Positions 14,020 through 42,475 of a stretch of DNA of 64,000 bases are shown here, piece after piece. Position numbers and translations under genes: made by a program. Source of the stretch: Balanoglossus misakiensis (taxonomy: Eukaryota > Animalia > Hemichordata); NCBI GenBank assembly GCA_040954595.2, contig CM082588.2, positions 9,656,844 to 9,720,843 of the forward strand. Reading direction: 5' to 3'. Position 1 is the first letter of the stretch, and each line of letters begins with the position of its first letter. The notes below the pieces were generated by a model. It had not been told where the DNA came from and searched no databases. It saw nothing but the letters and a program-made list of their open reading frames with translations.

Positions 14020-14353
14020 GGTCAGCGATGTAAAGGAGTAGCTCTAAGTGAGCGCTGTTTAAGGCGCGGTGGGGACAGTAGGGGTCCATGTGCCCGCCAA
14101 TCATATGCTGTCTGAAGCCCGCCGGAGGGAAAGTTTCCCGGGCTTGTCATTGCCACTTTTGCATTCGGCAGAGCAGCAGGCTGGACACGGGACGCTATTC
14201 CCTTCCGTAGTGTCAAGCGACACTGACAGCGGACTGTACGTTTATTCAAGTGGTACACTTTGACTTTCACGATCCTTGAGACAGCGGAACTGACCCATTC
14301 AGAGGTATTGTCACGATTTCTGAGATTATCGCTAACCTACCTTATCCACAGTT

Positions 14354-14887
14354 TTGAGACTTGGCTCGAACGCTCCCCCGATTGACACTGCTACTTTTGC
14401 CGCGCCGGACTGGCGAGAAAAAAGGGCAACACTGAAAACGCCTCAAACGCTACCTAGGGGTAGGCCCGTGCCTGATCCTTCGCTCGTTATATCTGGGTCT
14501 GTACCTGAATCAGTGCCCGCGCCGGACTCTGAAGTACAAAACTGGGCCGATCAACATGGGATCTTACTGCCAACTCTGAATGTGTTAGCGGCCAACGGGT
14601 TTACTACGATGCAAGTGGTCAGATTAATTCATCATGACGATTTATATTTCATGAAGATATCTCCTCTTGCCCAGTTTCGGCAATTGGACGCAGCGCTTAT
14701 CGAGCTTGCCGGAACCGTGCGCCCTCGCATACGACGGCCGGACAACAATACACAGACAACATGGTGGCCCCCAGTACATCAGACTCCCACGAAGCCAGTT
14801 CAGCGAGCGCGAAGACCGTCGACTCCGAACAGGCACAACAGGCAAGTCGAGGAGAAGTTGGACTGGACTCGCTGCTTCAGGCGTTGA
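14354..14887 (+). CDS. Ngaro ORF1 N-terminal part with SAM-like helical motif; out of frame with the rest of gag
   Basis: WADQHGILLPTLNVLAANGFTTMQVVRLIHHDDLYFMKISPLAQFRQLDAAL resembles the SAM-domain pattern. Frame is open from 14336 and has no ATG before the motif. Confidence 0.5.
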   Translation: MRLGSNAPPIDTATFAAPDWREKRATLKTPQTLPRGRPVPDPSLVISGSVPESVPAPDSEVQNWADQHGILLPTLNVLAANGFTTMQVVRLIHHDDLYFMKISPLAQFRQLDAALIELAGTVRPRIRRPDNNTQTTWWPPVHQTPTKPVQRARRPSTPNRHNRQVEEKLDWTRCFRR

Positions 14888-15630
14888 ATATCAACGCGGG
14901 ACCACTGAACAATGACCTGACCCTGCCCAGGAAGATACCTCAGCGCATGGACTTAGAACCCATGGTGTATTTAAAACCGGCGTCCATGGCAGGTTTGAAA
15001 TTTTATGACATTGTTGACTATGTACCAAGCTCCCTACAGGCTAAGGTCGACCAAAAAGTGCTGGCCTTTGGAGCGGGGGAAAACAAACTGGTGTTTGAAT
15101 TGGGTCCATCAAAACCCAAATTAGGGTCGGTGACCCCTCAGCAATGGTCTGCGGCCAACTCTCGCATTTTGTACGAACTCATTTCAAAGCACAATTACAA
15201 CCTTACTCAAGTACAAGAGTATTCAGCATACACCATTAAAGTGTGTCAACTGGCAGACCGATATGAATGGGTGTCTGTTTTGCATTATGATCGGGAGTTC
15301 CGTAAACTACAAGCGGCCTATAATTTACCATGGGGAACTGACTCCCAACATTTGTCCACTGTGTATTTGAGGGAAAAAGGGGCAGTGCAAAACAAAGCAC
15401 GGGGGTCATATCAGGTCAAAAATGGTAAGTCTACTTCTGTGGCGCCCGTTGATGTCAAGACAGGACAACCCATTTGTATCGGTTGCAATAAAGGGGATTG
15501 CAAGTTCGGGGTAAAATGTAATTACAGTCATATATGTTTGGATTGCAAAAAGGGCCATTCCAAAATCAACCACCCAAACTTGTCAGGGGGGAACCAAAGA
15601 GCGAGAACAAGCCACTTCAAGGGTAACTGA
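14761..15630 (+). CDS. gag: Ngaro gag-like protein
   Basis: WVSVLHYDREFR motif and C-terminal C-x5/6-C-x5-C-x3-H-x-C-x2-C-x3-H zinc fingers, typical of DIRS/Ngaro gag. Confidence 0.85.
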   Translation: MVAPSTSDSHEASSASAKTVDSEQAQQASRGEVGLDSLLQALNINAGPLNNDLTLPRKIPQRMDLEPMVYLKPASMAGLKFYDIVDYVPSSLQAKVDQKVLAFGAGENKLVFELGPSKPKLGSVTPQQWSAANSRILYELISKHNYNLTQVQEYSAYTIKVCQLADRYEWVSVLHYDREFRKLQAAYNLPWGTDSQHLSTVYLREKGAVQNKARGSYQVKNGKSTSVAPVDVKTGQPICIGCNKGDCKFGVKCNYSHICLDCKKGHSKINHPNLSGGNQRARTSHFKGN

Positions 15631-15661
15631 CCTGCCCACCCCTCCCCCCTTCCCTTCAGCC

Positions 15662-16942
15662 TTACGTTATGAAGCCTGGGTTACTGAAATTTGCCCCAAT
15701 GACCCAGACAAAGATTTTATTCTTGACGGGATTGAACAGGGTTTTTGCATTGTCGATCCTGGTTCTAATATCCGCCCTGCTGAGACAAATAATTACAAAT
15801 CTGCAACGGACCCCTCATTTCGTGTTGCAGTGGAGGAACAAATTTTGGTTGAGTTGAGTGAAGGTCGTTATGAGGTCACATCTGACAAACCAACTATTGT
15901 AAGCGCACTGGGGACCATTCCCAAACAAAACTCACCAGATGTTAGACTGATTCATGATTGCAGTCAACCGCCCAATTTTGCAGTCAAAGACTATGCAACT
16001 AATCCTTCGTTTTCCTTCCAAACCTTTGGGGAGGCCACCAAATTAATTAAGCCAGGGTCCTTTTTAGCTAAGGTGGATTTGAAGTCTGCATACAGGTCTG
16101 TCCGTATCCATCCATCTAATTATAGTGCTACTGGGTTGAAATGGACCTTTTCTAACATGCAAGAGGCTACTTATATGTTCGACACGAGGATCCCATTTGG
16201 AGCCAAAAAGGCCCCCATCATTTTTCACCGTCTCACCCAAGCTGTGCGTAGGATGATGCATCGCAAGGGTTATGTTTGTTTAGTGGTCTACCTTGATGAT
16301 TTCCTCATTGTTGCAGATACTTACCAGGAGTGCCAAATTGCCCTGAACACCCTTATTTCATTGCTTCGTAAGTTAGGGTTTGCTATTGCTTGGGGTAAGG
16401 TTGAGAGACCCACTCAACGGTTAGTATTTTTAGGTATTGAAATTGATACCCGCGCTTTTACTGTTGCCTTGCCGCTGCCAAAGCTTCATGAGCTTTATTC
16501 ATTGCTGCTTATTTTTCGCACAAAAACACGTGCATCCCGCCGCCAGCTGCAATTCCTTGCTGGGAAATTAAACTGGGCTTGCCAGGTCATTGTCGGAGGT
16601 AGGACTTTCCTCCGTCGCATCCTGGATTGCATTAATAATCTCCGCCAACCTTCTCATAAAGTTATCCTTGGTAGGGAATTTAAGGCCGATCTTGATTGGT
16701 GGATTCGCTTTTTACCACATTTTAATGGCACTTACAAGATTCTGAATACAGACCCTATAACTGATGTGCATACAGATGCTAGCAACACCGCTGCCGGTGC
16801 TTATTTTAGGGGGGATTGGGTGTACACCAGGTGGGCTGACTGGCCATCTACTTCACACTTCATATTAATTACAAAGAGGTGCTGGCTGTTGCAGTGGCAG
16901 CACAAAGATGGGCACCTGTGTGGGCAAATCATAGAGTTGTAA
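15662..16942 (+). CDS. Ngaro reverse transcriptase and N-terminal half of RNase H
   Basis: KVDLKSAYR, IPFG, YLDDF, FLGIEID and TDAS motifs. The frame is open upstream of the annotated GTG (LRYEAWV...DFILDGIEQGF). It frameshifts near 16855-16861. Confidence 0.93.
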   Translation, partial: LRYEAWVTEICPNDPDKDFILDGIEQGFCIVDPGSNIRPAETNNYKSATDPSFRVAVEEQILVELSEGRYEVTSDKPTIVSALGTIPKQNSPDVRLIHDCSQPPNFAVKDYATNPSFSFQTFGEATKLIKPGSFLAKVDLKSAYRSVRIHPSNYSATGLKWTFSNMQEATYMFDTRIPFGAKKAPIIFHRLTQAVRRMMHRKGYVCLVVYLDDFLIVADTYQECQIALNTLISLLRKLGFAIAWGKVERPTQRLVFLGIEIDTRAFTVALPLPKLHELYSLLLIFRTKTRASRRQLQFLAGKLNWACQVIVGGRTFLRRILDCINNLRQPSHKVILGREFKADLDWWIRFLPHFNGTYKILNTDPITDVHTDASNTAAGAYFRGDWVYTRWADWPSTSHFILITKRCWLLQWQHKDGHLCGQIIEL

Positions 16943-17379
16943 TTCACACGGACAGTATGTCTGCTATGGGTATGCTTAATAAGGGGACATGTCGCCATCC
17001 ATTCATGATGTCTGTGCTTCGTTCTCTATTTTGGCTCTCAGCTTCTTACAACTTCAGCATTCAAGCAGTTTATGTTCCTGGTAAACTCAATCACATTCCT
17101 GATGCCATTTCCAGGTTGCATCAACCAGGTCAGTTCATGAGGTTGCATACACTGCTCCACCCTTATGGAGAGCTCCACCCCACCTTCACCTTAGCTAGCT
17201 TCCCACTTCACATGCCTTATACTGCTGCTACCTTTCTTACTCGTCAGATCCAGAGATCAAACAGCTGGAGGAACATCTGGATAGGGAAGTGGCCACATAT
17301 AGAGGAAGTGCCTTTGCAGAAAATACACAGCGCACATACTCTGTCCACTGGAAGTCATACATCTCCTTTTGTGTTATGA
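16861..17379 (+). CDS. Ngaro RNase H C-terminal half (frameshifted)
   Basis: HINYKEVLAV, IHTDS and VPGKLNHIPDAISR RNase H motifs lie in the -1 frame relative to RT. Confidence 0.88.
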   Translation, partial: HINYKEVLAVAVAAQRWAPVWANHRVVIHTDSMSAMGMLNKGTCRHPFMMSVLRSLFWLSASYNFSIQAVYVPGKLNHIPDAISRLHQPGQFMRLHTLLHPYGELHPTFTLASFPLHMPYTAATFLTRQIQRSNSWRNIWIGKWPHIEEVPLQKIHSAHTLSTGSHTSPFVL

Positions 17380-18254
17380 TGGGTTACCCCCCTTTGCCAG
17401 CCAGTAGTGACCTGGTTTGTCGTTACACAGCCTACTTAGCTCGCCGTCTAAAGTTCAACTCAGTGAAGCAGTATTTAAATATTATTCGTATTTTGCACTT
17501 AGAGCATGGCTTCGCCAATCCACTCCAAGACAATTGGCTGCTGACTATGCTGTTAAAGGGCATAGCCAAAGTTAAGGGAACTACAGTTGCCAGGAAGCTG
17601 CCTCTCGCCCCCACATTGTTATTGGGCATTCACAGTCAGTTATGTTTTTCATCAGCCTTTGATTCTGTCTTTTGGGCAGCCTGCCTTGTGGGTTTCTTTG
17701 GGTTGCTGCGCAAATCCAATTTCTTAGTTCCTTCAGGCCCTAAGTTTGACCCAGACAAACATCTAACTAGGGCTTCCTTCCAGGTGCATGCATGGGGTCT
17801 CACCATCATTATTCAATGGACCAAAACGCTACAAACTCGGGATCGGGTTCTTCAAGTTCCTCTCCCATGGATTTGCAATCACCCATTATGCCCTGTTTCT
17901 GCAGTCCTTAGGGCATTTCAGCATTCTAAGGGGGCACCCCCTACAGGCCCAGCCTTTGTCATCCCTGCAGGTAATGGTAGCTTCCGCCCGCTCACTGTCC
18001 CACAGTTCACCTCAAAGCTCCGCACCCATCTTAGTCGCCTAGGGGTGCAGGTCAGTGAATATTCTTCACACAGTCTCCGTCGGGGAGGGGCATCCTGGGC
18101 AATACAGTGTGGGGTTCCCAGTGATATAATTAAGCTGATGGGGGATTGGAGGAGTGACGCATACCTTCGTTACTTGGTCCTCCCCCTCCCTTTCAAAGTT
18201 AACTCTGTTAAGCTTTGTGCCAAACAGCTTCCTTTTTCTACTTCTACATTGTAA
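17250..18254 (+). CDS. Ngaro tyrosine recombinase
   Basis: Catalytic residues R (LLRKSN), K (WTKT), HxxR (HSLRRGGA), W (GDW) and Y (AYLRY). The frame is intact. Confidence 0.95.
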   Translation, partial: PEIKQLEEHLDREVATYRGSAFAENTQRTYSVHWKSYISFCVMMGYPPLPASSDLVCRYTAYLARRLKFNSVKQYLNIIRILHLEHGFANPLQDNWLLTMLLKGIAKVKGTTVARKLPLAPTLLLGIHSQLCFSSAFDSVFWAACLVGFFGLLRKSNFLVPSGPKFDPDKHLTRASFQVHAWGLTIIIQWTKTLQTRDRVLQVPLPWICNHPLCPVSAVLRAFQHSKGAPPTGPAFVIPAGNGSFRPLTVPQFTSKLRTHLSRLGVQVSEYSSHSLRRGGASWAIQCGVPSDIIKLMGDWRSDAYLRYLVLPLPFKVNSVKLCAKQLPFSTSTL

Positions 18255-19316
18255 GCAAGTTTTCTATGACTACCACTACTATATTGGGTTTTTGGGAGAA
18301 TTTTGTAGTAAACACAGACAGACTTCAACTGTCCATTAGTATGTGTTTTTGTCAGTATTAAAGTTTCCCCCAAAGTTGTGCCCAATTTGTGTGTCCCAGT
18401 GTGGTTTGTGTGTGAGAGCCAGTGTGCCTTAAGGAGTAGCTCTAAGTGAGCGCTGATTAAGGCGCGGTGGGGACAGTAGGGGTCCGTGTGCCAGCCAAAC
18501 ATATGCTGTCTCAAGACCGCCGGAGGGAAAGTTTCCCGGGCTTGTCATTGCCACTTTTGCATTCGGCAGAGCAGCAGGCTGGACATGGGACGCTATTGAC
18601 CCACCCTCCCACCACACATTCCAGGGAATTTCTGCCTGTCTTTGTTGCTTTATATTATTTATATTTATTGTATTTATTAAAAGCATTGTTTGTATGCTTT
18701 GCATTGTTTTCATAGTTCTTTTGATAGTGTAGTTTTCAGGGGGAGAATTTTGTAGTAAACACAGACAGACTTCAACTGTTCATTAGTATGTGTTTTTGTC
18801 AGTATTAAAGTTTTCCCCAAAGTTGTGCCCAATTTGTGTGTCCCAGTGTGGTTTGTGTGTGAGAGCCAGTGTGCCTTAAACATTTCATACAACACTGCCT
18901 ACTAACAATAGTCATATCAATCTGACAAGGGAAGATGAAAAAACACATCTTTTCAAACTAGCTTACTGTGCGGACCAATTTCATTAAGCCCCATTGAACA
19001 GCTATATTTTCTTGAATTCTGGTTTTATAATTAATTTTGATTGATTGACATGTGTTTTACATCTAAATGCATCGCTTTGGGAACATTTTCTCGTATGTAT
19101 GAGATTATTAAATTGAACTTGTATATTTGCTGAGGGCAACTAAATGTTCAGTAAAGATGAGGAATGCTCAATGTTTGGATTGTCTTCAAAAAGATGACAA
19201 CAACTCAAGTCTCAAAAACTCTTTGTTTTGAATTTTGAATTGTTTTTGTTGCATCAGTAACGACTTCACATGTGGATGCCACATTTTGATTCTTAGCAAA
19301 TGTTGTATTTTGACAG

Positions 19317-21746: not shown

Positions 21747-24700
21747 GTAGGTACAGTCAAACCTGTCTATACTGGCCAGTCAAGGGACTTCCAAAACTGA
21801 CATTTATAGACAGGTGGCTTCTATAGACTGGTCAATAAATGTGCAATGTACATGTACATGAAATGAAACAAAGTTGCCACTACATAGAGGTGGCCACAAA
21901 CACATAGTTGACTGTCATATATGTTATGTTGCCATGGCAGTCATTTACCATGAGTTCGATTATACATTGCCAAAACCGGAGGAAAAAAATATTCAAGTTC
22001 CCCTTTTCATATTCTCCATCGATGGTATAATACGCCAGTGTCATGACCACACACAACTTCCACCCTGCTTGTAGCCACGAGAGTGAAAAAAACCTCACCA
22101 ATATGAACAATCGGTCTCTATCATTTATTCATTTTGGGCGAGTTTTTATGCTCATATCATTCAAGCGGGATGGAAATTGTGTATGGTTGAACATTCATTC
22201 ACTACATATACATATGTACATTAATATAAAATGTCTCTTGTATCAAACATAATGGAAAAAAGGGCAGCGAGAGAGAGACTTTGTCCCTTTAATAGAAATG
22301 TGCATCTATTTCAACTATTACTTTTGTCTTGAACAATCTTTCCTTAATAGAGTGGTGTACTGATTAGAGAGATGTCTTATTGACAGGTTTCACTGTATAA
22401 TATCAACATTTTCAGTTCCATAATCCTTCAGTGTTTGCCAGAGAATTTCGACAGCACTCAAAAACTTTCTCTGCCATACTCACAATAAGAGAAAGCTTGC
22501 ACCTGTGTTTTACTGTTAAATTACCATACCACAAAAAACAGTTTGTTTTTGCGAGCAATAAAGTTTTCGCGAAATATGCGAGAACCAACAAACATGAAAA
22601 TAAAAAGTCGCGTAAAATGTTTTTCGTAGATAAAGATGCAATGAAATACGAGAATGTGAAAATTAATCCTCGCGTAACAGTTTGGTCTTTTAATGTCGCG
22701 AAAAATTTCCTTTCATGAAAATAATCCGTTTTACAGTCTGGTAATATTGAAGGTCAGAATGCTTTTGATGAGAGAACAATACACCAGTTGCAAAGTATCT
22801 TGACAAACATGAAATGATTGAATTCTCCGAAGAAGATATAATCTCGCAGTTGGTGTGTTGTTTCCTCATCAAAAGCATTCTGACCTTCAATATTATTCTG
22901 TTGAGCTATACATGCAATCTAGTCTATATATGAACAGAAACATTGTATATTGATCTGCAACTCTCCTCCACATCCCTTGCCAAGTCAAGATAGTATTAAT
23001 TACAGTGGATTTACTGCAAAACAATTGGCTGCCATGTTGGGTGAGGTAAGCAGTGTTTTCTCCAGGACGCGCGATTGCGTGATTCCCCCTCTTTTACACT
23101 TGAATCGCCCCTTGAACTTGTTACAAGGGGCGATTCAATCACCCCTTTCTTGAGCAGCCCACCCAGCCAGTACATGTGCGTCCATGCCTCCATAGCATGC
23201 ACTGTCAGTCAAAACACTGGGAAAATGGCCGATATTACTGCATGCTGGCCTATACATTTTAACTTCCCACCCCCAAAACTATGTTGTAGATGTCTTTCAC
23301 ATTCAATTATGTGTACTTTAGCTCCAGGGCTATAGTGTGCAATTATTGGAACAGCCAAAGAGTTCTATCTGGACACCGTCTAAATTTAGAGCACACATTC
23401 AAGTGAACTTGTTGTTATGGTGACCTTTGAAATTGGGTTGGCAGAACGTAACAATTTTATGCAAATTAAGAGAACTGCGTTCATGCCATGGCGATTATCA
23501 AGAATGTATCATTTTTCCGTGACCTCGTTTTCTTACTTAGGAAGGAAAGTCATTCAATATGTACAGTGACTGTTTACTTTGAGTAGTGTGCCTAGCCACG
23601 TACAGATGGGGAAGTGTACTGCAGAAATCTGAAGGAAAATATACCATTTCAATTTATTCCACTATTAATGGTTTCACAGTCTAATATTTTGGCAGCTAAA
23701 CTGAAACTTTTAAAAGCAAACAAGATAATTTTTTCCCAGGTATGGTATTAAAGAAAGACACTATTGTTTTTGCAGTTGCATTTATTTTATTCATTTCACT
23801 CTCCTTGCCAGGGGAGCAGTTCTTAGTCACTCTCCTACCACTTGTGTAAATAATTTCAGGAAAGTTATTTTCAGCTCTCCAGCATTTTTTAAATTACACG
23901 CCCTGAAAGTTATGCAAGCTGGAGTGTTCCTCTGCAAAACCTACTAATTTATTATTCAAAATGGTCATTACTTGATATTTACCTAAGTAACATAAATTAT
24001 GCAAATCATGATTCCCCCCTATTTTGACCAAATCCCCCCTTAATTTTAGACTAAGGGGGAACATTCCCCCCTTCTCTCAACATCCTGGAGAAAACACTGG
24101 GTCAGCGATGTAAAGGAGTAGCTCTAAGTGAGCGCTGTTTAAGGCGCGGTGGGGACAGTAGGGGTCCATGTGCCCGCCAATCATATGCTGTCTGAAGCCC
24201 GCCGGAGGGAAAGTTTCCCGGGCTTGTCATTGCCACTTTTGCATTCGGCAGAGCAGCAGGCTGGACACGGGACGCTATTCCCTTCCGTAGTGTCAAGCGA
24301 CACTGACAGCGGACTGTACGTTTATTCAAGTGGTACACTTTGACTTTCACGATCCTTGAGACAGCGGAACTGACCCATTCAGAGGTATTGTCACGATTTC
24401 TGAGATTATCGCTAACCTACCTTATCCACAGTTTTGAGACTTGGCTCGAACGCTCCCCCGATTGACACTGCTACTTTTGCCGCGCCGGACTGGCGAGAAA
24501 AAAGGGCAACACTGAAAACGCCTCAAACGCTACCTAGGGGTAGGCCCGTGCCTGATCCTTCGCTCGTTATATCTGGGTCTGTACCTGAATCAGTGCCCGC
24601 GCCGGACTCTGAAGTACAAAACTGGGCCGATCAACATGGGATCTTACTGCCAACTCTGAATGTGTTAGCGGCCAACGGGTTTACTACGATGCAAGTGGTC

Positions 24701-24840
24701 AGATTAATTCATCATGACGATTTATATTTCATGAAGATATCTCCTCTTGCCCAGTTTCGGCAATTGGACGCAGCGCTTATCGAGCTTGCCGGAACCGTGC
24801 GCCCTCGCATACGACGGCCGGACAACAATACACAGACAAC

Positions 24841-25710
24841 ATGGTGGCCCCCAGTACATCAGACTCCCACGAAGCCAGTTCAGCGAGCGCGAAGACCGTC
24901 GACTCCGAACAGGCACAACAGGCAAGTCGAGGAGAAGTTGGACTGGACTCGCTGCTTCAGGCGTTGAATATCAACGCGGGACCACTGAACAATGACCTGA
25001 CCCTGCCCAGGAAGATACCTCAGCGCATGGACTTAGAACCCATGGTGTATTTAAAACCGGCGTCCATGGCAGGTTTGAAATTTTATGACATTGTTGACTA
25101 TGTACCAAGCTCCCTACAGGCTAAGGTCGACCAAAAAGTGCTGGCCTTTGGAGCGGGGGAAAACAAACTGGTGTTTGAATTGGGTCCATCAAAACCCAAA
25201 TTAGGGTCGGTGACCCCTCAGCAATGGTCTGCGGCCAACTCTCGCATTTTGTACGAACTCATTTCAAAGCACAATTACAACCTTACTCAAGTACAAGAGT
25301 ATTCAGCATACACCATTAAAGTGTGTCAACTGGCAGACCGATATGAATGGGTGTCTGTTTTGCATTATGATCGGGAGTTCCGTAAACTACAAGCGGCCTA
25401 TAATTTACCATGGGGAACTGACTCCCAACATTTGTCCACTGTGTATTTGAGGGAAAAAGGGGCAGTGCAAAACAAAGCACGGGGGTCATATCAGGTCAAA
25501 AATGGTAAGTCTACTTCTGTGGCGCCCGTTGATGTCAAGACAGGACAACCCATTTGTATCGGTTGCAATAAAGGGGATTGCAAGTTCGGGGTAAAATGTA
25601 ATTACAGTCATATATGTTTGGATTGCAAAAAGGGCCATTCCAAAATCAACCACCCAAACTTGTCAGGGGGGAACCAAAGAGCGAGAACAAGCCACTTCAA
25701 GGGTAACTGA
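24841..25710 (+). CDS. gag: Ngaro gag-like protein, copy 2
   Basis: Identical translation to 14761-15630. Confidence 0.85.
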   Translation: MVAPSTSDSHEASSASAKTVDSEQAQQASRGEVGLDSLLQALNINAGPLNNDLTLPRKIPQRMDLEPMVYLKPASMAGLKFYDIVDYVPSSLQAKVDQKVLAFGAGENKLVFELGPSKPKLGSVTPQQWSAANSRILYELISKHNYNLTQVQEYSAYTIKVCQLADRYEWVSVLHYDREFRKLQAAYNLPWGTDSQHLSTVYLREKGAVQNKARGSYQVKNGKSTSVAPVDVKTGQPICIGCNKGDCKFGVKCNYSHICLDCKKGHSKINHPNLSGGNQRARTSHFKGN

Positions 25711-25741
25711 CCTGCCCACCCCTCCCCCCTTCCCTTCAGCC

Positions 25742-27022
25742 TTACGTTATGAAGCCTGGGTTACTGAAATTTGCCCCAATGACCCAGACAAAGATTTTAT
25801 TCTTGACGGGATTGAACAGGGTTTTTGCATTGTCGATCCTGGTTCTAATATCCGCCCTGCTGAGACAAATAATTACAAATCTGCAACGGACCCCTCATTT
25901 CGTGTTGCAGTGGAGGAACAAATTTTGGTTGAGTTGAGTGAAGGTCGTTATGAGGTCACATCTGACAAACCAACTATTGTAAGCGCACTGGGGACCATTC
26001 CCAAACAAAACTCACCAGATGTTAGACTGATTCATGATTGCAGTCAACCGCCCAATTTTGCAGTCAAAGACTATGCAACTAATCCTTCGTTTTCCTTCCA
26101 AACCTTTGGGGAGGCCACCAAATTAATTAAGCCAGGGTCCTTTTTAGCTAAGGTGGATTTGAAGTCTGCATACAGGTCTGTCCGTATCCATCCATCTAAT
26201 TATAGTGCTACTGGGTTGAAATGGACCTTTTCTAACATGCAAGAGGCTACTTATATGTTCGACACGAGGATCCCATTTGGAGCCAAAAAGGCCCCCATCA
26301 TTTTTCACCGTCTCACCCAAGCTGTGCGTAGGATGATGCATCGCAAGGGTTATGTTTGTTTAGTGGTCTACCTTGATGATTTCCTCATTGTTGCAGATAC
26401 TTACCAGGAGTGCCAAATTGCCCTGAACACCCTTATTTCATTGCTTCGTAAGTTAGGGTTTGCTATTGCTTGGGGTAAGGTTGAGAGACCCACTCAACGG
26501 TTAGTATTTTTAGGTATTGAAATTGATACCCGCGCTTTTACTGTTGCCTTGCCGCTGCCAAAGCTTCATGAGCTTTATTCATTGCTGCTTATTTTTCGCA
26601 CAAAAACACGTGCATCCCGCCGCCAGCTGCAATTCCTTGCTGGGAAATTAAACTGGGCTTGCCAGGTCATTGTCGGAGGTAGGACTTTCCTCCGTCGCAT
26701 CCTGGATTGCATTAATAATCTCCGCCAACCTTCTCATAAAGTTATCCTTGGTAGGGAATTTAAGGCCGATCTTGATTGGTGGATTCGCTTTTTACCACAT
26801 TTTAATGGCACTTACAAGATTCTGAATACAGACCCTATAACTGATGTGCATACAGATGCTAGCAACACCGCTGCCGGTGCTTATTTTAGGGGGGATTGGG
26901 TGTACACCAGGTGGGCTGACTGGCCATCTACTTCACACTTCATATTAATTACAAAGAGGTGCTGGCTGTTGCAGTGGCAGCACAAAGATGGGCACCTGTG
27001 TGGGCAAATCATAGAGTTGTAA
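25742..27022 (+). CDS. Ngaro reverse transcriptase and partial RNase H, copy 2
   Basis: Identical to copy 1 (YLDD) with the same frameshift. Confidence 0.93.
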   Translation, partial: LRYEAWVTEICPNDPDKDFILDGIEQGFCIVDPGSNIRPAETNNYKSATDPSFRVAVEEQILVELSEGRYEVTSDKPTIVSALGTIPKQNSPDVRLIHDCSQPPNFAVKDYATNPSFSFQTFGEATKLIKPGSFLAKVDLKSAYRSVRIHPSNYSATGLKWTFSNMQEATYMFDTRIPFGAKKAPIIFHRLTQAVRRMMHRKGYVCLVVYLDDFLIVADTYQECQIALNTLISLLRKLGFAIAWGKVERPTQRLVFLGIEIDTRAFTVALPLPKLHELYSLLLIFRTKTRASRRQLQFLAGKLNWACQVIVGGRTFLRRILDCINNLRQPSHKVILGREFKADLDWWIRFLPHFNGTYKILNTDPITDVHTDASNTAAGAYFRGDWVYTRWADWPSTSHFILITKRCWLLQWQHKDGHLCGQIIEL

Positions 27023-27459
27023 TTCACACGGACAGTATGTCTGCTATGGGTATGCTTAATAAGGGGACATGTCGCCATCCATTCATGATGTCTGTGCTTC
27101 GTTCTCTATTTTGGCTCTCAGCTTCTTACAACTTCAGCATTCAAGCAGTTTATGTTCCTGGTAAACTCAATCACATTCCTGATGCCATTTCCAGGTTGCA
27201 TCAACCAGGTCAGTTCATGAGGTTGCATACACTGCTCCACCCTTATGGAGAGCTCCACCCCACCTTCACCTTAGCTAGCTTCCCACTTCACATGCCTTAT
27301 ACTGCTGCTACCTTTCTTACTCGTCAGATCCAGAGATCAAACAGCTGGAGGAACATCTGGATAGGGAAGTGGCCACATATAGAGGAAGTGCCTTTGCAGA
27401 AAATACACAGCGCACATACTCTGTCCACTGGAAGTCATACATCTCCTTTTGTGTTATGA
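26941..27459 (+). CDS. Ngaro RNase H C-terminal half, copy 2
   Basis: Identical translation to copy 1. Confidence 0.88.
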   Translation, partial: HINYKEVLAVAVAAQRWAPVWANHRVVIHTDSMSAMGMLNKGTCRHPFMMSVLRSLFWLSASYNFSIQAVYVPGKLNHIPDAISRLHQPGQFMRLHTLLHPYGELHPTFTLASFPLHMPYTAATFLTRQIQRSNSWRNIWIGKWPHIEEVPLQKIHSAHTLSTGSHTSPFVL

Positions 27460-28334
27460 TGGGTTACCCACCTTTGCCAGCCAGTAGTGACCTGGTTTGT
27501 CGTTACACAGCCTACTTAGCTCGCCGTCTAAAGTTCAACTCAGTGAAGCAGTATTTAAATATTATTCGTATTTTGCACTTAGAGCATGGCTTCGCCAATC
27601 CACTCCAAGACAATTGGCTGCTGACTATGCTGTTAAAGGGCATAGCCAAAGTTAAGGGAACTACAGTTGCCAGGAAGCTGCCTCTCGCCCCCACATTGTT
27701 ATTGGGCATTCACAGTCAGTTATGTTTTTCATCAGCCTTTGATTCTGTCTTTTGGGCAGCCTGCCTTGTGGGTTTCTTTGGGTTGCTGCGCAAATCCAAT
27801 TTCTTAGTTCCTTCAGGCCCTAAGTTTGACCCAGACAAACATCTAACTAGGGCTTCCTTCCAGGTGCATGCATGGGGTCTCACCATCATTATTCAATGGA
27901 CCAAAACGCTACAAACTCGGGATCGGGTTCTTCAAGTTCCTCTCCCATGGATTTGCAATCACCCATTATGCCCTGTTTCTGCAGTCCTTAGGGCATTTCA
28001 GCATTCTAAGGGGGCACCCCCTACAGGCCCAGCCTTTGTCATCCCTGCAGGTAATGGTAGCTTCCGCCCGCTCACTGTCCCACAGTTCACCTCAAAGCTC
28101 CGCACCCATCTTAGTCGCCTAGGGGTGCAGGTCAGTGAATATTCTTCACACAGTCTCCGTCGGGGAGGGGCATCCTGGGCAATACAGTGTGGGGTTCCCA
28201 GTGATATAATTAAGCTGATGGGGGATTGGAGGAGTGACGCATACCTTCGTTACTTGGTCCTCCCCCTCCCTTTCAAAGTTAACTCTGTTAAGCTTTGTGC
28301 CAAACAGCTTCCTTTTTCTACTTCTACATTGTAA
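27330..28334 (+). CDS. Ngaro tyrosine recombinase, copy 2
   Basis: Identical translation to copy 1, catalytic residues intact. Confidence 0.95.
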   Translation, partial: PEIKQLEEHLDREVATYRGSAFAENTQRTYSVHWKSYISFCVMMGYPPLPASSDLVCRYTAYLARRLKFNSVKQYLNIIRILHLEHGFANPLQDNWLLTMLLKGIAKVKGTTVARKLPLAPTLLLGIHSQLCFSSAFDSVFWAACLVGFFGLLRKSNFLVPSGPKFDPDKHLTRASFQVHAWGLTIIIQWTKTLQTRDRVLQVPLPWICNHPLCPVSAVLRAFQHSKGAPPTGPAFVIPAGNGSFRPLTVPQFTSKLRTHLSRLGVQVSEYSSHSLRRGGASWAIQCGVPSDIIKLMGDWRSDAYLRYLVLPLPFKVNSVKLCAKQLPFSTSTL

Positions 28335-29396
28335 GCAAGTTTTCTATGACTACCACTACTATATTGGGTTTTTGGGAGAATTTTGTAGTAAACACAGACA
28401 GACTTCAACTGTCCATTAGTATGTGTTTTTGTCAGTATTAAAGTTTCCCCCAAAGTTGTGCCCAATTTGTGTGTCCCAGTGTGGTTTGTGTGTGAGAGCC
28501 AGTGTGCCTTAAGGAGTAGCTCTAAGTGAGCGCTGATTAAGGCGCGGTGGGGACAGTAGGGGTCCGTGTGCCAGCCAAACATATGCTGTCTCAAGACCGC
28601 CGGAGGGAAAGTTTCCCGGGCTTGTCATTGCCACTTTTGCATTCGGCAGAGCAGCAGGCTGGACATGGGACGCTATTGACCCACCCTCCCACCACACATT
28701 CCAGGGAATTTCTGCCTGTCTTTGTTGCTTTATATTATTTATATTTATTGTATTTATTAAAAGCATTGTTTGTATGCTTTGCATTGTTTTCATAGTTCTT
28801 TTGATAGTGTAGTTTTCAGGGGGAGAATTTTGTAGTAAACACAGACAGACTTCAACTGTTCATTAGTATGTGTTTTTGTCAGTATTAAAGTTTTCCCCAA
28901 AGTTGTGCCCAATTTGTGTGTCCCAGTGTGGTTTGTGTGTGAGAGCCAGTGTGCCTTAAACATTTCATACAACACTGCCTACTAACAATAGTCATATCAA
29001 TCTGACAAGGGAAGATGAAAAAACACATCTTTTCAAACTAGCTTACTGTGCGGACCAATTTCATTAAGCCCCATTGAACAGCTATATTTTCTTGAATTCT
29101 GGTTTTATAATTAATTTTGATTGATTGACATGTGTTTTACATCTAAATGCATCGCTTTGGGAACATTTTCTCGTATGTATGAGATTATTAAATTGAACTT
29201 GTATATTTGCTGAGGGCAACTAAATGTTCAGTAAAGATGAGGAATGCTCAATGTTTGGATTGTCTTCAAAAAGATGACAACAACTCAAGTCTCAAAAACT
29301 CTTTGTTTTGAATTTTGAATTGTTTTTGTTGCATCAGTAACGACTTCACATGTGGATGCCACATTTTGATTCTTAGCAAATGTTGTATTTTGACAG

Positions 29397-36957: not shown

Positions 36958-37129
36958 TGAGACATTTGATTACTTTGTGAATGGCGCCCTCTGTGTCAAG
37001 AGGTGGGAGGTGGGTAGCCTCGTTTTGGAAAAAAGACGCCATCTTGTTTTGGTGTGTGATTGTCGATGTCGAGCATGGTCTGATGTGAATAAAGAGTCCA
37101 TTGAAATACAGTTGTGTGTAGACGTTTCA
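36958..37129 (+). repeat. Gypsy 5' LTR
   Basis: TGAGAC...GTTTCA with internal AATAAA; identical to the 3' LTR by eye. Confidence 0.97.
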
Positions 37130-37130
37130 A

Positions 37131-37144
37131 TGGTGGCAGCGGTG
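37131..37144 (+). promoter_or_regulatory. Primer-binding site complementary to the tRNA-Leu 3' end
   Basis: TGGTGGCAGCGGTG, 1 nt after the 5' LTR, is the reverse complement of CACCGCTGCCACCA. Confidence 0.88.
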
Positions 37145-37150
37145 TAAACG

Positions 37151-38008
37151 ATGGCCAAAAAAGTAGAATATTTCACCGGGGAGGAGAGAGGAGAACTGGA
37201 ACCTTGGTTGGATAGATTCGATGCTATCATTGAGGCAGAAGGTAAAGAGAACAAAGCTGCAGCAATAATACGCACGTGTTTGAAAGGAGATGCAGCGACC
37301 GTAATCCAATTGCTGTCGGTAGATGACAAAAAGGACATAGATAAGATAAGGGTAGAGTTGAGAAAACATTTTGGATTGAAGAGAGATGAATTGTCAGCAC
37401 AGCGGGAATTTCATTGCCGTAAACTGGAATCCGGGGAGAGCATTGGGAAGTTCGTGCGTTCCCTAAGAAAGCTTGCAATTGAAGGATTTCCCAAATGCGT
37501 TGGTAGCGGATTAGACTCAATTATCAAAGGTCAGTTTATCGTCGGTCTTCCTAGGGAATTGGGCGACCAGTTATCTGTTGCCTTACACTACAAAGTTGCC
37601 GAAGCGGAGTTAAGTGAGGTCGTGGATTTTGCCACGAACTGGCAAAAATATCAGACAAAGGAGAACACTATTTCTGTTGACAACGTCATGCAAGTAGGGG
37701 AGGTCGATACAACCGTAAGCAGTGTGGTACGCGAGGCTGTTGAATCTGCAATTTCAAGCTTAGAGCCCACAATTTCAGCAATGGTTGATGCGCAAGTTAA
37801 TCGGGTGTACGGAAACCAGAGCAACCAACAAAGAGGTAGTGGTAGAACCAGTCGCTCATCAACAAGGCCTGCACAGACAACTGGTAAGTGTTTTGAATGT
37901 GGACGGTTCGGCCATTTTAGAAGAAACTGTCCTAATCGGTTCCAGTGTTTCAAGTGTCATCGTTACGGACATAAGGCAGCCAATTGTCCTGAATTTTACC
38001 CAAACTAG
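37151..38008 (+). CDS. gag: Gypsy Gag with two CCHC zinc knuckles
   Basis: CFECGRFGHFRRNC and CFKCHRYGHKAANC; starts just after the PBS. Confidence 0.95.
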   Translation: MAKKVEYFTGEERGELEPWLDRFDAIIEAEGKENKAAAIIRTCLKGDAATVIQLLSVDDKKDIDKIRVELRKHFGLKRDELSAQREFHCRKLESGESIGKFVRSLRKLAIEGFPKCVGSGLDSIIKGQFIVGLPRELGDQLSVALHYKVAEAELSEVVDFATNWQKYQTKENTISVDNVMQVGEVDTTVSSVVREAVESAISSLEPTISAMVDAQVNRVYGNQSNQQRGSGRTSRSSTRPAQTTGKCFECGRFGHFRRNCPNRFQCFKCHRYGHKAANCPEFYPN

Positions 38009-38042
38009 TGGGAGGTCGGGGCGCTGGCCAGCCCTTGACCTC
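37999..38042 (+). promoter_or_regulatory. Predicted -1 ribosomal frameshift signal
   Basis: C CCA AAC heptamer immediately before the gag TAG, then a GC-rich stem at 38012-38042. pol is in the -1 frame. Confidence 0.8.
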
Positions 38043-41000
38043 TGTTGAGAAGACGGCCATGGATGGTCTGTGTACTGATGATCTGGTGAGTGGCAATGTT
38101 CGGGGGACCCCGGAACTGCCTGTCCGGGGCCTTAGAGCCTGGGGATTGCCACATGACCAGAATCAGTATCATAGTCAACAAACTGTTACCGAACAACAAA
38201 TGAACAACGATGAACTCTCACCCCAAATATTAACCACAATGACTTCACGCACATGCGGCGACCAATATAAGACTACGGGTATGATAAATGGAGTTGAGAC
38301 GCCCATATTCGTAGATAGTGGTTCACAAATTACCATAGTCAGAAGTGATCTACCAGCCATAAACGGGTTGCCACTGTATCCTGTGAATATTCAGCCAGAA
38401 GCAGTTAATGGTACACCCGTATGCTTTGATGGCCAGGTGCAAGTCGATCTTACTGTTCAAAATTTTGTCATTGGTCCAACATGGGTGTATGTAATGTCTC
38501 CAAAGCTCATGCGTAATGAATTCTTGATGGGAACGGATGTTATGGAAAAACTGGGAAGCATGGAAGTTGATTTTGTAAAGAAAACTGTGACTTTCAAAGG
38601 ACTGACACAACCTAATACTTACCTCAACAAACCTGTAAATAACAAGATGAACTTGAAACCACAGTGTTGCCGTGTGACATTACTACAACGAGCTGTTATA
38701 CCACCTAGACATGAACAAATGTGTCATGTACTTGTCGCAGCTATACCGGGACAACAAGGACTCATTGAAGGTAGTGATCAGCTACTTGAGAAAAAACACG
38801 TCGCTTGTGCTGCCTCACTTAACACTTTGGATAAGGACAGAACAACCTGGGTTAGATTATGCAACCCAAATCCTATATCTGTTAAATTGTACAGGGGATC
38901 CAGTATTGCCGAGTTCACGCCTGATGTTGGCCAACCCACAGTAATTGAACAAGTATGTGTTGAGAGCGACACACCTAAGCCAGAAAGTAAACAGGACCAT
39001 GAAACTATTGATTCTTTGATAGAAAGAACAGATGTGAACCAGTCACAAAAAAATGAAGTTCATAAACTTGTTGAGAGTTTTGAGGATGTGTTTTCATGGA
39101 AAGGTGAATTTGGAAGAACTCATATTATAGAACACAAGATACATACTGGTATTGCACCACCACTTAGATCAGGTGCTAGGAGAACGGGTTACCACGAGAG
39201 GGAGAAAGTCGACAAAATGGTGACTGAGCTATTGGAAAAGGATGTTATTGAGGAGAGTTCCAGTCCTTCGGCTAGCCCAATTGTCCTTGTACCCAAGAAA
39301 GATGGGTCCTTACGATTTTGCATTGACTTTCGTCGATTGAATTCGGTAACTAAGGATGATGCATTTCCCTTACCGCGTATTGACGATGCCATAGACTGTC
39401 TTGGAGGGAGTAAATGGTTTTCCACGTTAGATATGGCTAGTGGCTACTGGCAAGTAGGTATGGATAAAGAATCTAGGGAGAAGACAGCATTTATATGTCA
39501 CAAAGGACTATATCAGTTTAAAGTCATGCCATTTGGACTTAAGGGAGCACCAGCTACATTTCAAAGACTCATGTCGTCCATTTTCAGTCCAGAGATGTGG
39601 CATGTTCTACTTATATATCTGGATGACATCTTGATTTTTTCATCAACATTCGAGCAGCACTTGCAACGACTAGAGCTGGTATTCAGAAAATTGCGTGAGG
39701 CAGGACTTAAGCTACAGCCACGAAAGTGTCATTTCTTTCAAACTGAGATTGAGTATCTTGGCCAGCTTGTAACTCGTCATGGGGTGTCACCCAGTCAAAG
39801 AATAGTCAGTGCTGTTGCAGAGTTTCCCACACCTACTTCAGTAACAGAGCTTCGCAGATTCATAGGACTTGCCTCGTATTATAGGAGGTTCATAGCAGGA
39901 TTTTCAACTGTTGCAGCCCCGTTACACAAGTTGACTTCAAAGGGTGAGGTATTCATTTGGACAACAGATTGCCAACAAGCATTCAGTGAACTGAAAACTA
40001 AGCTGTCAAGTGCTCCAGTTTTAGCATACCCTAACTTTGATGTACCATTTTCGCTGGTAACTGATGCCAGTGGGGTTGGAGTTGGTGCTGTTCTTGAGCA
40101 AACAGTGAGTGGTGTAACCCGACCAATAGCCTATGCTAGCTCAATTCTCACGAAAGCGCAACGCAATTATTCAGCGACAGAGCGTGAGTGTTATGCGGTG
40201 GTCTGGGCGATTGACAAGTTTCGGAGTTACCTCTACGGAACTAGATTCAACATAATTACGGACCACAGATCATTAACTTTCCTCAAGTCAGTGAAGGAGC
40301 CAAGGGGCAGATTGGCGCGGTGGCAGTCGGAACTGCAAGTCTATGACTATGAGATATTACACAGACCAGGCAAAGCCATACCACATGCTGATGCACTTTC
40401 ACGTGCCCCATTGATCGCAGTTACTACTGTTCAAGGGAAGTGGTCTTTTGACGAGTTGAAAGCGCTGCAAGAAACAGACCCAGTTATAAACAGAGTGCGT
40501 GACTTGGTTCGATTGAAACAACTCTGTACACCTGGTGATGGAAAACGAGTAAAGGAGTTAATGCTGCGTGCAAGAGGTCTTCATATTGACATTGGTACAG
40601 GGCTTCTGTGCTGTCGATACTATGTTGGGAGGAGAGAATGTATACAGGTAATTTTCCCAGACTCTCATGCTTCTGAGGTTCTGCCAGTGGTACATGATCA
40701 GGAGGGTCACTTGGGAATCAAACGCACATTAGCCAAACTAAAGAAGTCGTTCTATTGGCCGGAGATGAGACTTAGAGTACAGGAGTGGTGTCGCAGCTGC
40801 ATACAGTGTAATCAGAACAAGTTGCAACTGAGAGGAAAAGCCCCATTGCAACGTATGCCTGAACCAACTCGACCATTTCAATGGGTCAGCACTGATGTAT
40901 TTGGACCCATCCCAGCCACCAAGAAAGGAAATCGCTACATTGTAACCATAAATGATGGCTTTAGTAAATTTGTTGTAGCTAAAGCAATACCCAATCAAGA

Positions 41001-41688
41001 AAGTTCTACCATAGCAGAAATATTCATCAATGATTGGTGTTTGTTGTTTGGTCCACCAGAGACATTACACAGTGATCAGGGACGAAATTTCGAAAGTAAT
41101 CTCCTGTCTGAGGTGTGCAGAATGTTCAACACATCAAAAACAAGAACATCAAGTTACCACCCATCTGGAAATGGACAAACAGAACATTTCAACCTTACTT
41201 TGGCTGACATGTTAAAGAACTATGTTAACGAGTGTCAAGACAATTGGGATGACCATCTACCAAAAGTCATCCACACCTATAACACGAGTGAACATGATGC
41301 TACCGGGCATACACCGTATTTCTTACTGTACGGTCAGGAGGTTAGAACTGCATTGCAGCCAGTACCCACAGACACAGTCAACTCAAGAGGTTTGTGTACA
41401 GCCCGGGACAGGGTCAAAGATCATTTTGACAAACTCACCAAGGCCAGAAAACTGGTGTATGATAGACTGGCTAAATTGAGAGACAGACGTTGTGAGAAGT
41501 CAAAGATAAACAGCCGATTCTGTAAATACAATGTTGGTGACAAAGTTATGGTTGCTAACAATGCCAGAAGGAAGGGACGTTCACCTAAACTCAGTGCCCG
41601 ATGGAATGGTCCTTACATCGTCGTCAAGGTAATCAGCGATGTGTTGTACAGGATAAGCCAGGGGGGGGGGGGCGGAGAAGGAAAGTGA
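38008..41688 (+). CDS. pol: Gypsy Pol (protease, RT, RNase H, integrase)
   Basis: VDSGS, LDMASGYWQ, MPFG, YLDD, TDASG, HHCC, D-D-E and GPY motifs. Ends prematurely after a G12 run. Confidence 0.97.
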   Translation: MGGRGAGQPLTSVEKTAMDGLCTDDLVSGNVRGTPELPVRGLRAWGLPHDQNQYHSQQTVTEQQMNNDELSPQILTTMTSRTCGDQYKTTGMINGVETPIFVDSGSQITIVRSDLPAINGLPLYPVNIQPEAVNGTPVCFDGQVQVDLTVQNFVIGPTWVYVMSPKLMRNEFLMGTDVMEKLGSMEVDFVKKTVTFKGLTQPNTYLNKPVNNKMNLKPQCCRVTLLQRAVIPPRHEQMCHVLVAAIPGQQGLIEGSDQLLEKKHVACAASLNTLDKDRTTWVRLCNPNPISVKLYRGSSIAEFTPDVGQPTVIEQVCVESDTPKPESKQDHETIDSLIERTDVNQSQKNEVHKLVESFEDVFSWKGEFGRTHIIEHKIHTGIAPPLRSGARRTGYHEREKVDKMVTELLEKDVIEESSSPSASPIVLVPKKDGSLRFCIDFRRLNSVTKDDAFPLPRIDDAIDCLGGSKWFSTLDMASGYWQVGMDKESREKTAFICHKGLYQFKVMPFGLKGAPATFQRLMSSIFSPEMWHVLLIYLDDILIFSSTFEQHLQRLELVFRKLREAGLKLQPRKCHFFQTEIEYLGQLVTRHGVSPSQRIVSAVAEFPTPTSVTELRRFIGLASYYRRFIAGFSTVAAPLHKLTSKGEVFIWTTDCQQAFSELKTKLSSAPVLAYPNFDVPFSLVTDASGVGVGAVLEQTVSGVTRPIAYASSILTKAQRNYSATERECYAVVWAIDKFRSYLYGTRFNIITDHRSLTFLKSVKEPRGRLARWQSELQVYDYEILHRPGKAIPHADALSRAPLIAVTTVQGKWSFDELKALQETDPVINRVRDLVRLKQLCTPGDGKRVKELMLRARGLHIDIGTGLLCCRYYVGRRECIQVIFPDSHASEVLPVVHDQEGHLGIKRTLAKLKKSFYWPEMRLRVQEWCRSCIQCNQNKLQLRGKAPLQRMPEPTRPFQWVSTDVFGPIPATKKGNRYIVTINDGFSKFVVAKAIPNQESSTIAEIFINDWCLLFGPPETLHSDQGRNFESNLLSEVCRMFNTSKTRTSSYHPSGNGQTEHFNLTLADMLKNYVNECQDNWDDHLPKVIHTYNTSEHDATGHTPYFLLYGQEVRTALQPVPTDTVNSRGLCTARDRVKDHFDKLTKARKLVYDRLAKLRDRRCEKSKINSRFCKYNVGDKVMVANNARRKGRSPKLSARWNGPYIVVKVISDVLYRISQGGGGGEGK

Positions 41689-42140
41689 TACATCACGATC
41701 AACTTCGTCCATACAGAGAGAGGCCAGGACATTTATACAGTAAGACGAGTGAGCAGACAATTGATGCTGGTTCGCCTTTGCGAGATCCAGAGGTGTCAAC
41801 TAATGGTAATGACCAACCGTCAGTTGCCGATAGTAGTGATTCCGATTCCGATTCTGAGGATGGGGATCTTTTGGGAAGTTCACGTATAGGAAATATACCA
41901 ACCCAGGGGAGTGTGTTACCAACCCAGGGGAGTGTGTTACCCACCCAGGGGAGTGTGGTACCAGACCGTCAGACGGAAATGGAGCCGACTGGAAATGAAG
42001 GGATGGATGCTGCAGGGTCAGGGAGCCAGCAGACTGATGGCAACCATGGTGCAGAATCTAATTTGCGTCGTTCTACCAGAGTGCGCCGTATTCCACGTCG
42101 GTTGCAGGATTATGTACTCACGGAACAGTTATCGGACTAA
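41661..42140 (+). CDS. Frameshifted C-terminal tail of Gypsy Pol
   Basis: KVIHHDQLRPY completes the GPY/F module and LRRSTRVRRIPRRLQDY is a typical pol end. Contains three 21-bp PTQGSVL repeats (about 41898-41960). Confidence 0.85.
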   Translation, partial: GGGGRRRKVIHHDQLRPYRERPGHLYSKTSEQTIDAGSPLRDPEVSTNGNDQPSVADSSDSDSDSEDGDLLGSSRIGNIPTQGSVLPTQGSVLPTQGSVVPDRQTEMEPTGNEGMDAAGSGSQQTDGNHGAESNLRRSTRVRRIPRRLQDYVLTEQLSD

Positions 42141-42303
42141 AACTGTCTTTGTTGACTGTCGACTACTGTGTATGAAAAAATGCATTGATTGTTAAACATT
42201 ATTTATTTATTTTATTTAATTATTTGCAACAGGCATGGAACACTTGGACTCTTGAATTTATTCTTGTCACATGTGGACATGTGCAGGGAAGGGGGGGAAG
42301 TTA

Positions 42304-42475
42304 TGAGACATTTGATTACTTTGTGAATGGCGCCCTCTGTGTCAAGAGGTGGGAGGTGGGTAGCCTCGTTTTGGAAAAAAGACGCCATCTTGTTTTGGTG
42401 TGTGATTGTCGATGTCGAGCATGGTCTGATGTGAATAAAGAGTCCATTGAAATACAGTTGTGTGTAGACGTTTCA
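42304..42475 (+). repeat. Gypsy 3' LTR
   Basis: Preceded by polypurine tract AGGGAAGGGGGGGAAG (42285-42300) and followed by the GTAC TSD. Confidence 0.97.

Follow-up and report, generated by a model that had tools for sequence, protein, structure and literature searches.

How does a retrotransposon translate open reading frames (ORFs) that overlap one another and lack start codons of their own? This question is raised by a 4.85-kb Ngaro element in the hemichordate Balanoglossus misakiensis. The element lies at positions 14033-18879 of a 64,000-nucleotide (nt) stretch of contig CM082588.2 (assembly GCA_040954595.2), hereafter the window; all coordinates are window positions, and the parts of the element are on the + strand. 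It has split direct repeats and encodes a Gag-like protein, a reverse transcriptase with RNase H (RT/RH) and a tyrosine recombinase (YR). The first-pass annotation of the window correctly placed the first in-frame ATGs of these three modules at 14609, 16157 and 17376, with none ahead of any conserved domain, and proposed that one short leader exon in or near the left repeat, A1, is alternatively spliced onto gag, RT/RH and YR. A comparison with related elements leads us to a different proposal. We consider it likely that the Ngaro family makes its recombinase from a spliced RNA, as a fusion between the N-terminal SAM domain of Gag and YR.

The comparison uses 90 loci with a related RT, fetched from animal DNA in metagenomes and genome bins. 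Together with the window copy these form 68 clusters at 75% RT identity, with a median pairwise identity of 44%. Each test used one locus per cluster and only those loci that cover the region, therefore the sample sizes vary. The YR start was tested in 54 clusters, the RT start in 65, the gag/RT junction in 55 (window excluded), donors within gag in 44 (drawn from 57 uninterrupted gag frames) and the gag start in 34. Candidate splice sites were scored with a splice matrix and ranked against the 289 AGs and 168 GTs of the element, or against cells that each combine a 75-nt window with one phase. The window element has 1589 RT homologues at E<=1e-30, the best of which are hemichordate gene models with 60-62% identity. 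No RT relative was found in viral contigs, where three distant YR loci matched. Loci L081-L120 and L124-L139 come from bacterial genome bins. Contigs of animal retrotransposons are numerous there, with 24 matches to YR in bin G001, and represent host contamination. The contigs of L016, L025, L028, L049, L077 and L089 are circularly permuted, with the YR or RT end at the contig start, a pattern that collapsed repeats or circular intermediates would produce.

The evidence for splicing begins just ahead of YR. This ORF (17248-18254) is an open frame with the R/K/HxxR/W-Y motifs; the catalytic R, K, HxxR and Y were located and lie in invariant alignment columns. It is preceded by a predicted 3' splice site in phase 1 (17225-17247), which scores 5.0 and ranks 4th of the 289 AGs, a score that 2.6% of the 75-nt cells reach. 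The site is conserved across the family. Within a fixed 75-nt interval, a phase-1 YAG with a pyrimidine tract stands ahead of YR in 53 of 54 clusters, and the 54th has its phase-1 YAG slightly further upstream, 161 nt from the anchor. Scores above 5 occur in phase 1 in 34 of the 54 clusters, versus 1 and 0 in the other two phases, and in 18 of 2961 control cells in the body of RT. In 43 clusters the acceptor ranks in the top five of all AGs at its locus. Distant elements, with 24-44% YR identity, also have phase 1 as their best phase in 14 of 17 cases (19 loci, two without a YR match). We asked whether conserved amino acids in the overlapping RH frame could have produced this site, and reject the idea: YR is at -1 relative to RH in 26 clusters, at +1 in 24 and in the same frame in 4, and five of the sites end in TAG. 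Because the offset varies, no RH amino acid explains the acceptor. The excerpts available of PMC3783388 likewise report that the YR frame varies among elements.

The variable offset also bears on an earlier proposal for YR, that of the review by Poulter and Butler 2015, which is quoted in the portion available of PMC13003380: YR would be translated by a ribosomal frameshift from RT/RH. On this view the acceptor-like sequence would be a by-product. The -1 offset of the window copy and of those 26 clusters would suit such a mechanism, as would nine of 19 long database proteins, described below, in which RT/RH is joined to YR. The other 28 clusters have offsets of +1 or 0, however, and the overlap shows no frameshift signal: slippery heptamers are found in 0 of 26 clusters with the -1 offset and TTT-CG sites in 0 of 24 with the +1 offset, although the same tests do detect signals where gag meets RT. 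Whatever the offset, the acceptor is kept together with a donor of matching phase. We regard frameshifting into YR as very improbable.

The probable matching donor is found inside gag. Phase-1 donors cluster just upstream of the conserved Gag core, within ten alignment columns in 22 of 45 clusters. Over a wider range of columns, a phase-1 donor with a score of at least 3 is present in 32 of 44 clusters, versus 0 and 0 in the other phases. The residue at the donor position is glycine in 29 of 44 clusters, and its codon is GGT in 22 of these 29, compared with 27% elsewhere in gag (p=7e-8). This codon bias leads us to reject Gly-Lys coding as the cause of the donor. In the window copy the family peak, alignment column 538, corresponds to a phase-1 donor at 14990-14998, with the exon ending at 14992. 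The strongest donor of the element, also in phase 1 in gag, lies further downstream (15422-15430, exon end at 15424; score 6.4, rank 1 of 168). It is upstream of the zinc finger and its position is not conserved, a comparable phase-1 donor being present in 2 of 44 clusters.

The conserved donor inside gag would be joined to the acceptor before YR, fusing the SAM domain of Gag to the recombinase, and the unspliced RNA would serve as the genome and as the message for Gag and Gag-RT/RH. In the window copy the predicted intron would span 14993-17247 (2255 nt) if the conserved donor position is used, with the stronger donor at 15425 as the alternative. That these conserved sites are used is our reading of their sequence and phase. 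Could an internal promoter or a start codon further downstream give rise to YR instead, with the splice-like sites unused or cryptic? In 29 of 54 clusters an in-frame ATG does occur in the stretch from the upstream stop to the 15th codon after the acceptor. These ATGs are at scattered places, however, the remaining 25 clusters have none, and the GGT bias at the gag donor is left unexplained. Internal initiation therefore seems to us very improbable.

Several RefSeq gene models show the predicted join. In XP_066298120.1 from Branchiostoma lanceolatum, a Gag N-terminus is joined to YR at the glycine where the full-length Gag P0242 enters its core. XP_078682739.1 and three paralogues of the same length depart from the Gag of KAI8490524.1 at the matching glycine. 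A wide search gave 150 matches, of which 19 have at least 60 residues ahead of YR; nine of the 19 contain RT/RH and ten do not. Three of those ten (P0267, P0307 and P0345) have N-termini that match the Gag of analysed loci. The fusions in gene models place 80-200 or more Gag residues ahead of YR.

What, then, of the leader exon? Several of the observations behind it stand. There are AGs at 14350-14351, 15658-15659 and 17246-17247, each in phase 1 with the module downstream, and the putative leader frame (14105-14258) does have an ATG at 14105, a GTG at 14210 and a phase-1 GT at 14253. Of the three sites described as canonical acceptors, those before RT and YR are strong (ranks 1 and 4 of 289). 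The gag site (14331-14351) is ordinary, with a score of 1.3, rank 31 of 289 and 13% of cells reaching it, and is probably a weak site that arose by chance. The leader donor scores -2.0 and ranks 46th of 168, and the conserved donor is not there but about 750 nt downstream, inside gag; the gene-model fusions retain a long piece of Gag.

Relatives with gag ORFs of at least 330 amino acids (aa) point the same way, since in 32 of 34 an ATG occurs in the first 40 codons of the frame, and 30 of these 32 ATGs have a purine at -3. The first-pass annotation had suggested looking for ATGs at the ORF starts of other copies, and for gag this check goes against it. No fixed-phase acceptor was found at the gag start across the 34 relatives. 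Seven do have an acceptor scoring above 4 near the gag start, in mixed phases; the four that are in phase 1, together with the three phase-1 AGs and the missing ATGs of the window copy, are what can be said for a shared leader. We consider that model very unlikely. Its idea that the ATG-less YR is reached by splicing fares well, with both acceptor and phase conserved, and the exon shared by gag, RT and YR is the part that finds no support.

The absent ATG of the window copy carries little weight because this copy has decayed. Its gag is split across a 5' frame (14336-14887, with no ATG before the SAM domain) and a 3' frame (14638-15630) with the conserved core and a CCCH-like zinc finger, ending in a TGA at 15628-15630. 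The break lies near 14715-14760. Gag is a single frame in relatives, the two parts being continuous in L027, L032 and L036, for example. The RT/RH region (15660-17379; Pfam RVT_1, 2e-17) is similarly split near 16850 and is a single frame in relatives. The missing gag ATG is best put down to this decay. The 3' gag frame holds ATGs of its own from 14761 on. Upstream of gag there is also a 52-codon open hydrophobic frame without an ATG (14227-14383), and the Gag of relatives L009, L025 and L026 starts with a signal-peptide-like stretch.

A number of points weigh against a spliced Gag-YR product. The window donor at 14993 is weak (score 0.3, rank 23 of 168). The column range for the donor count was picked after the peak had been seen, and 12 of 44 clusters have no donor of at least 3 within it. 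The Gag-YR gene models are automatic predictions, nine of the 19 long matches join RT/RH to YR instead, which shows that such models can bridge frames incorrectly and that their joins can be artefacts, and N-terminal extensions of such size that are not RT occur in only 1 of 120 and 10 of 150 matches. No intron-less genomic copy was found in four genome bins, a search in which loci picked by their RT cannot show such copies. The splice matrix was made by hand from approximate frequencies. Finally, the clusters are related by descent and their counts are not independent events. We nevertheless judge the spliced fusion likely.

The part of Gag that the recombinase is predicted to share lies at 14525-14713. 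AlphaFold models it with a pLDDT of 95.3 as five helices, and the best matches of the Gag N-terminal domain in the PDB are SAM domains, with TM scores up to 0.83, none at E<=0.001. Seven of 31 homologues match Pfam SAM_2 at E<=0.1, and a profile search gave matches to several SAM proteins (E 0.0004-0.005). In about a quarter of the relatives the Gag N-terminus is of another kind, with coiled-coil or Cys-His motifs. SAM domains often oligomerise, so a Gag-YR fusion could co-assemble with Gag through the shared domain, or the domain could guide the choice of target. Loss of ORF1 in the Ngaro elements of Cafeteria goes with an altered insertion preference, according to the excerpts available of PMC8547959. 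This effect would fit a recombinase that carries part of Gag; the host is a distant one, and splicing is unmentioned in those excerpts.

How the RT is made appears to be a separate matter. The first-pass annotation treated the acceptor before RT as one of a set, and in the window copy this site is indeed the strongest of all, with a branch-like CTGAC, a pyrimidine tract and an AG at 15627-15659 (score 6.2, rank 1 of 289, reached by 0.5% of cells). It is not conserved, however, as an acceptor above 5 is present at the RT start of 1 of 65 clusters. The relatives carry motifs of the recoding type instead. At the gag/RT junction, 50 of 55 clusters have such a motif, and these fall into three classes. 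The first class (23 clusters) has RT in the -1 frame, and a slippery heptamer, A AAA AAC in 20 of them, lies close to the stop of gag. In 21 clusters gag and RT are in frame around one stop (9 TGA-C, 8 TAG-G). The remaining explained junctions (6 of 55) have RT at +1, all with an in-frame TTT CGT; UUU CGN is a +1 frameshift site of the influenza PA-X type. The same motif, TTT CGN, lies in the overlap of 10 of 10 distant +1 elements, compared with 4 occurrences in about 2,790 other gag codons. A AAA AAC is listed among the most shift-prone heptamers in the available part of PMC5009743. Five of the 55 clusters have an unexplained junction.

From these motifs we infer that RT is made in the relatives by -1 slippage, stop readthrough or +1 slippage. 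The junction classes are interleaved on a quick tree of the relatives and two hemichordate gene models, which has no named reference element and excludes L090 and RT matches shorter than 250 aa. In the L033-L051 group RT is at -1 to gag, with a conserved 200-nt extension and no canonical slippery heptamer. Splicing of RT was considered for the L033 group, with its long gag-RT gap, and rejected, because the protein sequence in the RT frame is already conserved ahead of the AG.

Is the window lineage different? RT is at +1 to gag here, and the overlap contains no TTT codon; this is the sole +1 case that lacks the motif, TTT CGN being present in the others (16 of 16). The gag stop is flanked by the top-scoring donor (15425) and the top-scoring acceptor (15659) of the element, which are both in phase 1 and 235 nt apart. 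RT may be spliced here as well, from the donor at 15425 or at 14993 to the acceptor at 15659. Both enzymes would then be Gag fusions, and the donor at 15425 would give a 235-nt intron that drops the zinc finger and the stop. This would add to the Gag-YR fusion, not replace it. The branch-like CTGAC and the lack of any other AG within the tract are consistent with a functional site. On the other side, 64 of 65 clusters have no such acceptor; in the two nearest relatives with DNA, L002 and L003, which fall in the same group on the quick tree (97% SH-aLRT), gag and RT are separated by one in-frame TAG; the C-rich proline linker has a similar counterpart in L003, where no phase-1 site is as strong; the alignment of a hemichordate gene model continues across the tract in the frame of RT; and the copy already has two other frame breaks, with base runs in the linker. 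A third one-base break that hides a common junction class and a spliced gag-RT are thus about evenly balanced as readings of this lineage, and we lean very slightly away from splicing.

Which kind of element is this? The left end is repeat A1 (14033-14199, 167 nt), which has 96% identity to its direct repeat A2 (18431-18597). Repeat B1 (18294-18432, 139 nt) adjoins A2 and has 99% identity to B2 (18741-18879), the right end, with 143 nt between A2 and B2. The order of Gag-like, RT/RH and YR ORFs and the split direct repeats A1 ... B1 A2 B2 are those of the Ngaro superfamily (order DIRS), a layout defined in the sections available of PMC7192593, PMC3266345 and PMC3783388. RH runs directly into YR without an intervening methyltransferase, and a Pfam search of the element's five long frames (E<=0.1) found no methyltransferase, protease or DDE integrase, again as in Ngaro. 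A DIRS1-like element is ruled out by the lack of a methyltransferase and of any inverted repeat of at least 30 nt within the element. A PAT-like element, as defined in the available part of PMC7192593, would share the split direct repeats and is ruled out by the absent methyltransferase.

Other features of the window and of the relatives deserve a brief description. An approximately 11.4-kb tandem duplication with 99.4% identity occupies 8905-30386, with very few differences in its core and many at its edges. It may date from a recent event, or two haplotypes may have been assembled together. The duplication contains a second copy of the element (24113-28959), 10,080 nt downstream, which differs by one base and so is no independent evidence. 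A Ty3/gypsy LTR element lies at 36958-42475, with identical 172-nt repeats, a gag at 37148-38005 (PNMA-like plus CCHC) and an open pol at 37993-41685 with protease, RT, RNase H and integrase. Some distant YR elements from bin G001 (L125, L130, L137, L138 and L139) have a fourth ORF downstream of YR that, judged by eye from its motif, resembles an SGNH hydrolase. In L130 a strong phase-1 acceptor stands ahead of it. In L127 and L132 an ORF that also looks SGNH-hydrolase-like by eye is upstream of gag instead.

How does this compare with known systems? A literature search turned up no account of spliced Ngaro or DIRS ORFs in the portions of papers within its coverage, which did not extend to Goodwin and Poulter 2004, Poulter and Goodwin 2005 or Poulter and Butler 2015. 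Ngaro ORFs are described as overlapping or frameshifted, with splicing unmentioned, in the excerpts available of PMC7192593, PMC3783388, PMC3266345 and bioRxiv 10.1101/2021.08.05.455354, whereas the present evidence favours a Gag-YR fusion made by splicing, along with gag-RT recoding of three kinds. The env genes of Drosophila gypsy and the retroviruses offer a likeness: in the account available from PMC4276936, gag-pol is made from full-length RNA by frameshifting and the third ORF from a spliced RNA that skips pol. The third ORF of Ngaro is an integrating enzyme, however, not an envelope, and its product would begin with a folded domain from Gag, about 60 aa long, and a linker. In foamy viruses, the part of PMC7828637 at hand describes an enzyme ORF, pol, that is expressed via splicing, which would be the closest parallel if the RT acceptor of the window is real. 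Foamy Pol is made without Gag, whereas the Ngaro products would be Gag fusions, and from a YR retrotransposon. More speculatively, and with considerable doubt, one could see in animal Ngaro elements a retrovirus-like programme in which the polymer-forming SAM domain of Gag is spliced onto YR as a packaging or targeting tag and the Gag-RT junction swaps freely among -1 slippage, readthrough, +1 slippage and, in the window lineage, a short intron. A single family would then have four exchangeable answers to the same junction.

Accounts of how the overlapping, ATG-less ORFs of YR retrotransposons are translated have so far rested on a guess, a frameshift into YR. The conserved donor and acceptor specify exact junctions that can be tested, and they predict a working recombinase in the form of a Gag fusion. 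If this is true, the fusion would explain how the recombinase reaches the particle and why loss of ORF1 changes the target in Cafeteria, and it would change the protein to be expressed for Ngaro recombinase biochemistry. The gag-RT junction, meanwhile, is a source of numerous natural recoding sites, with three kinds represented in a single family.

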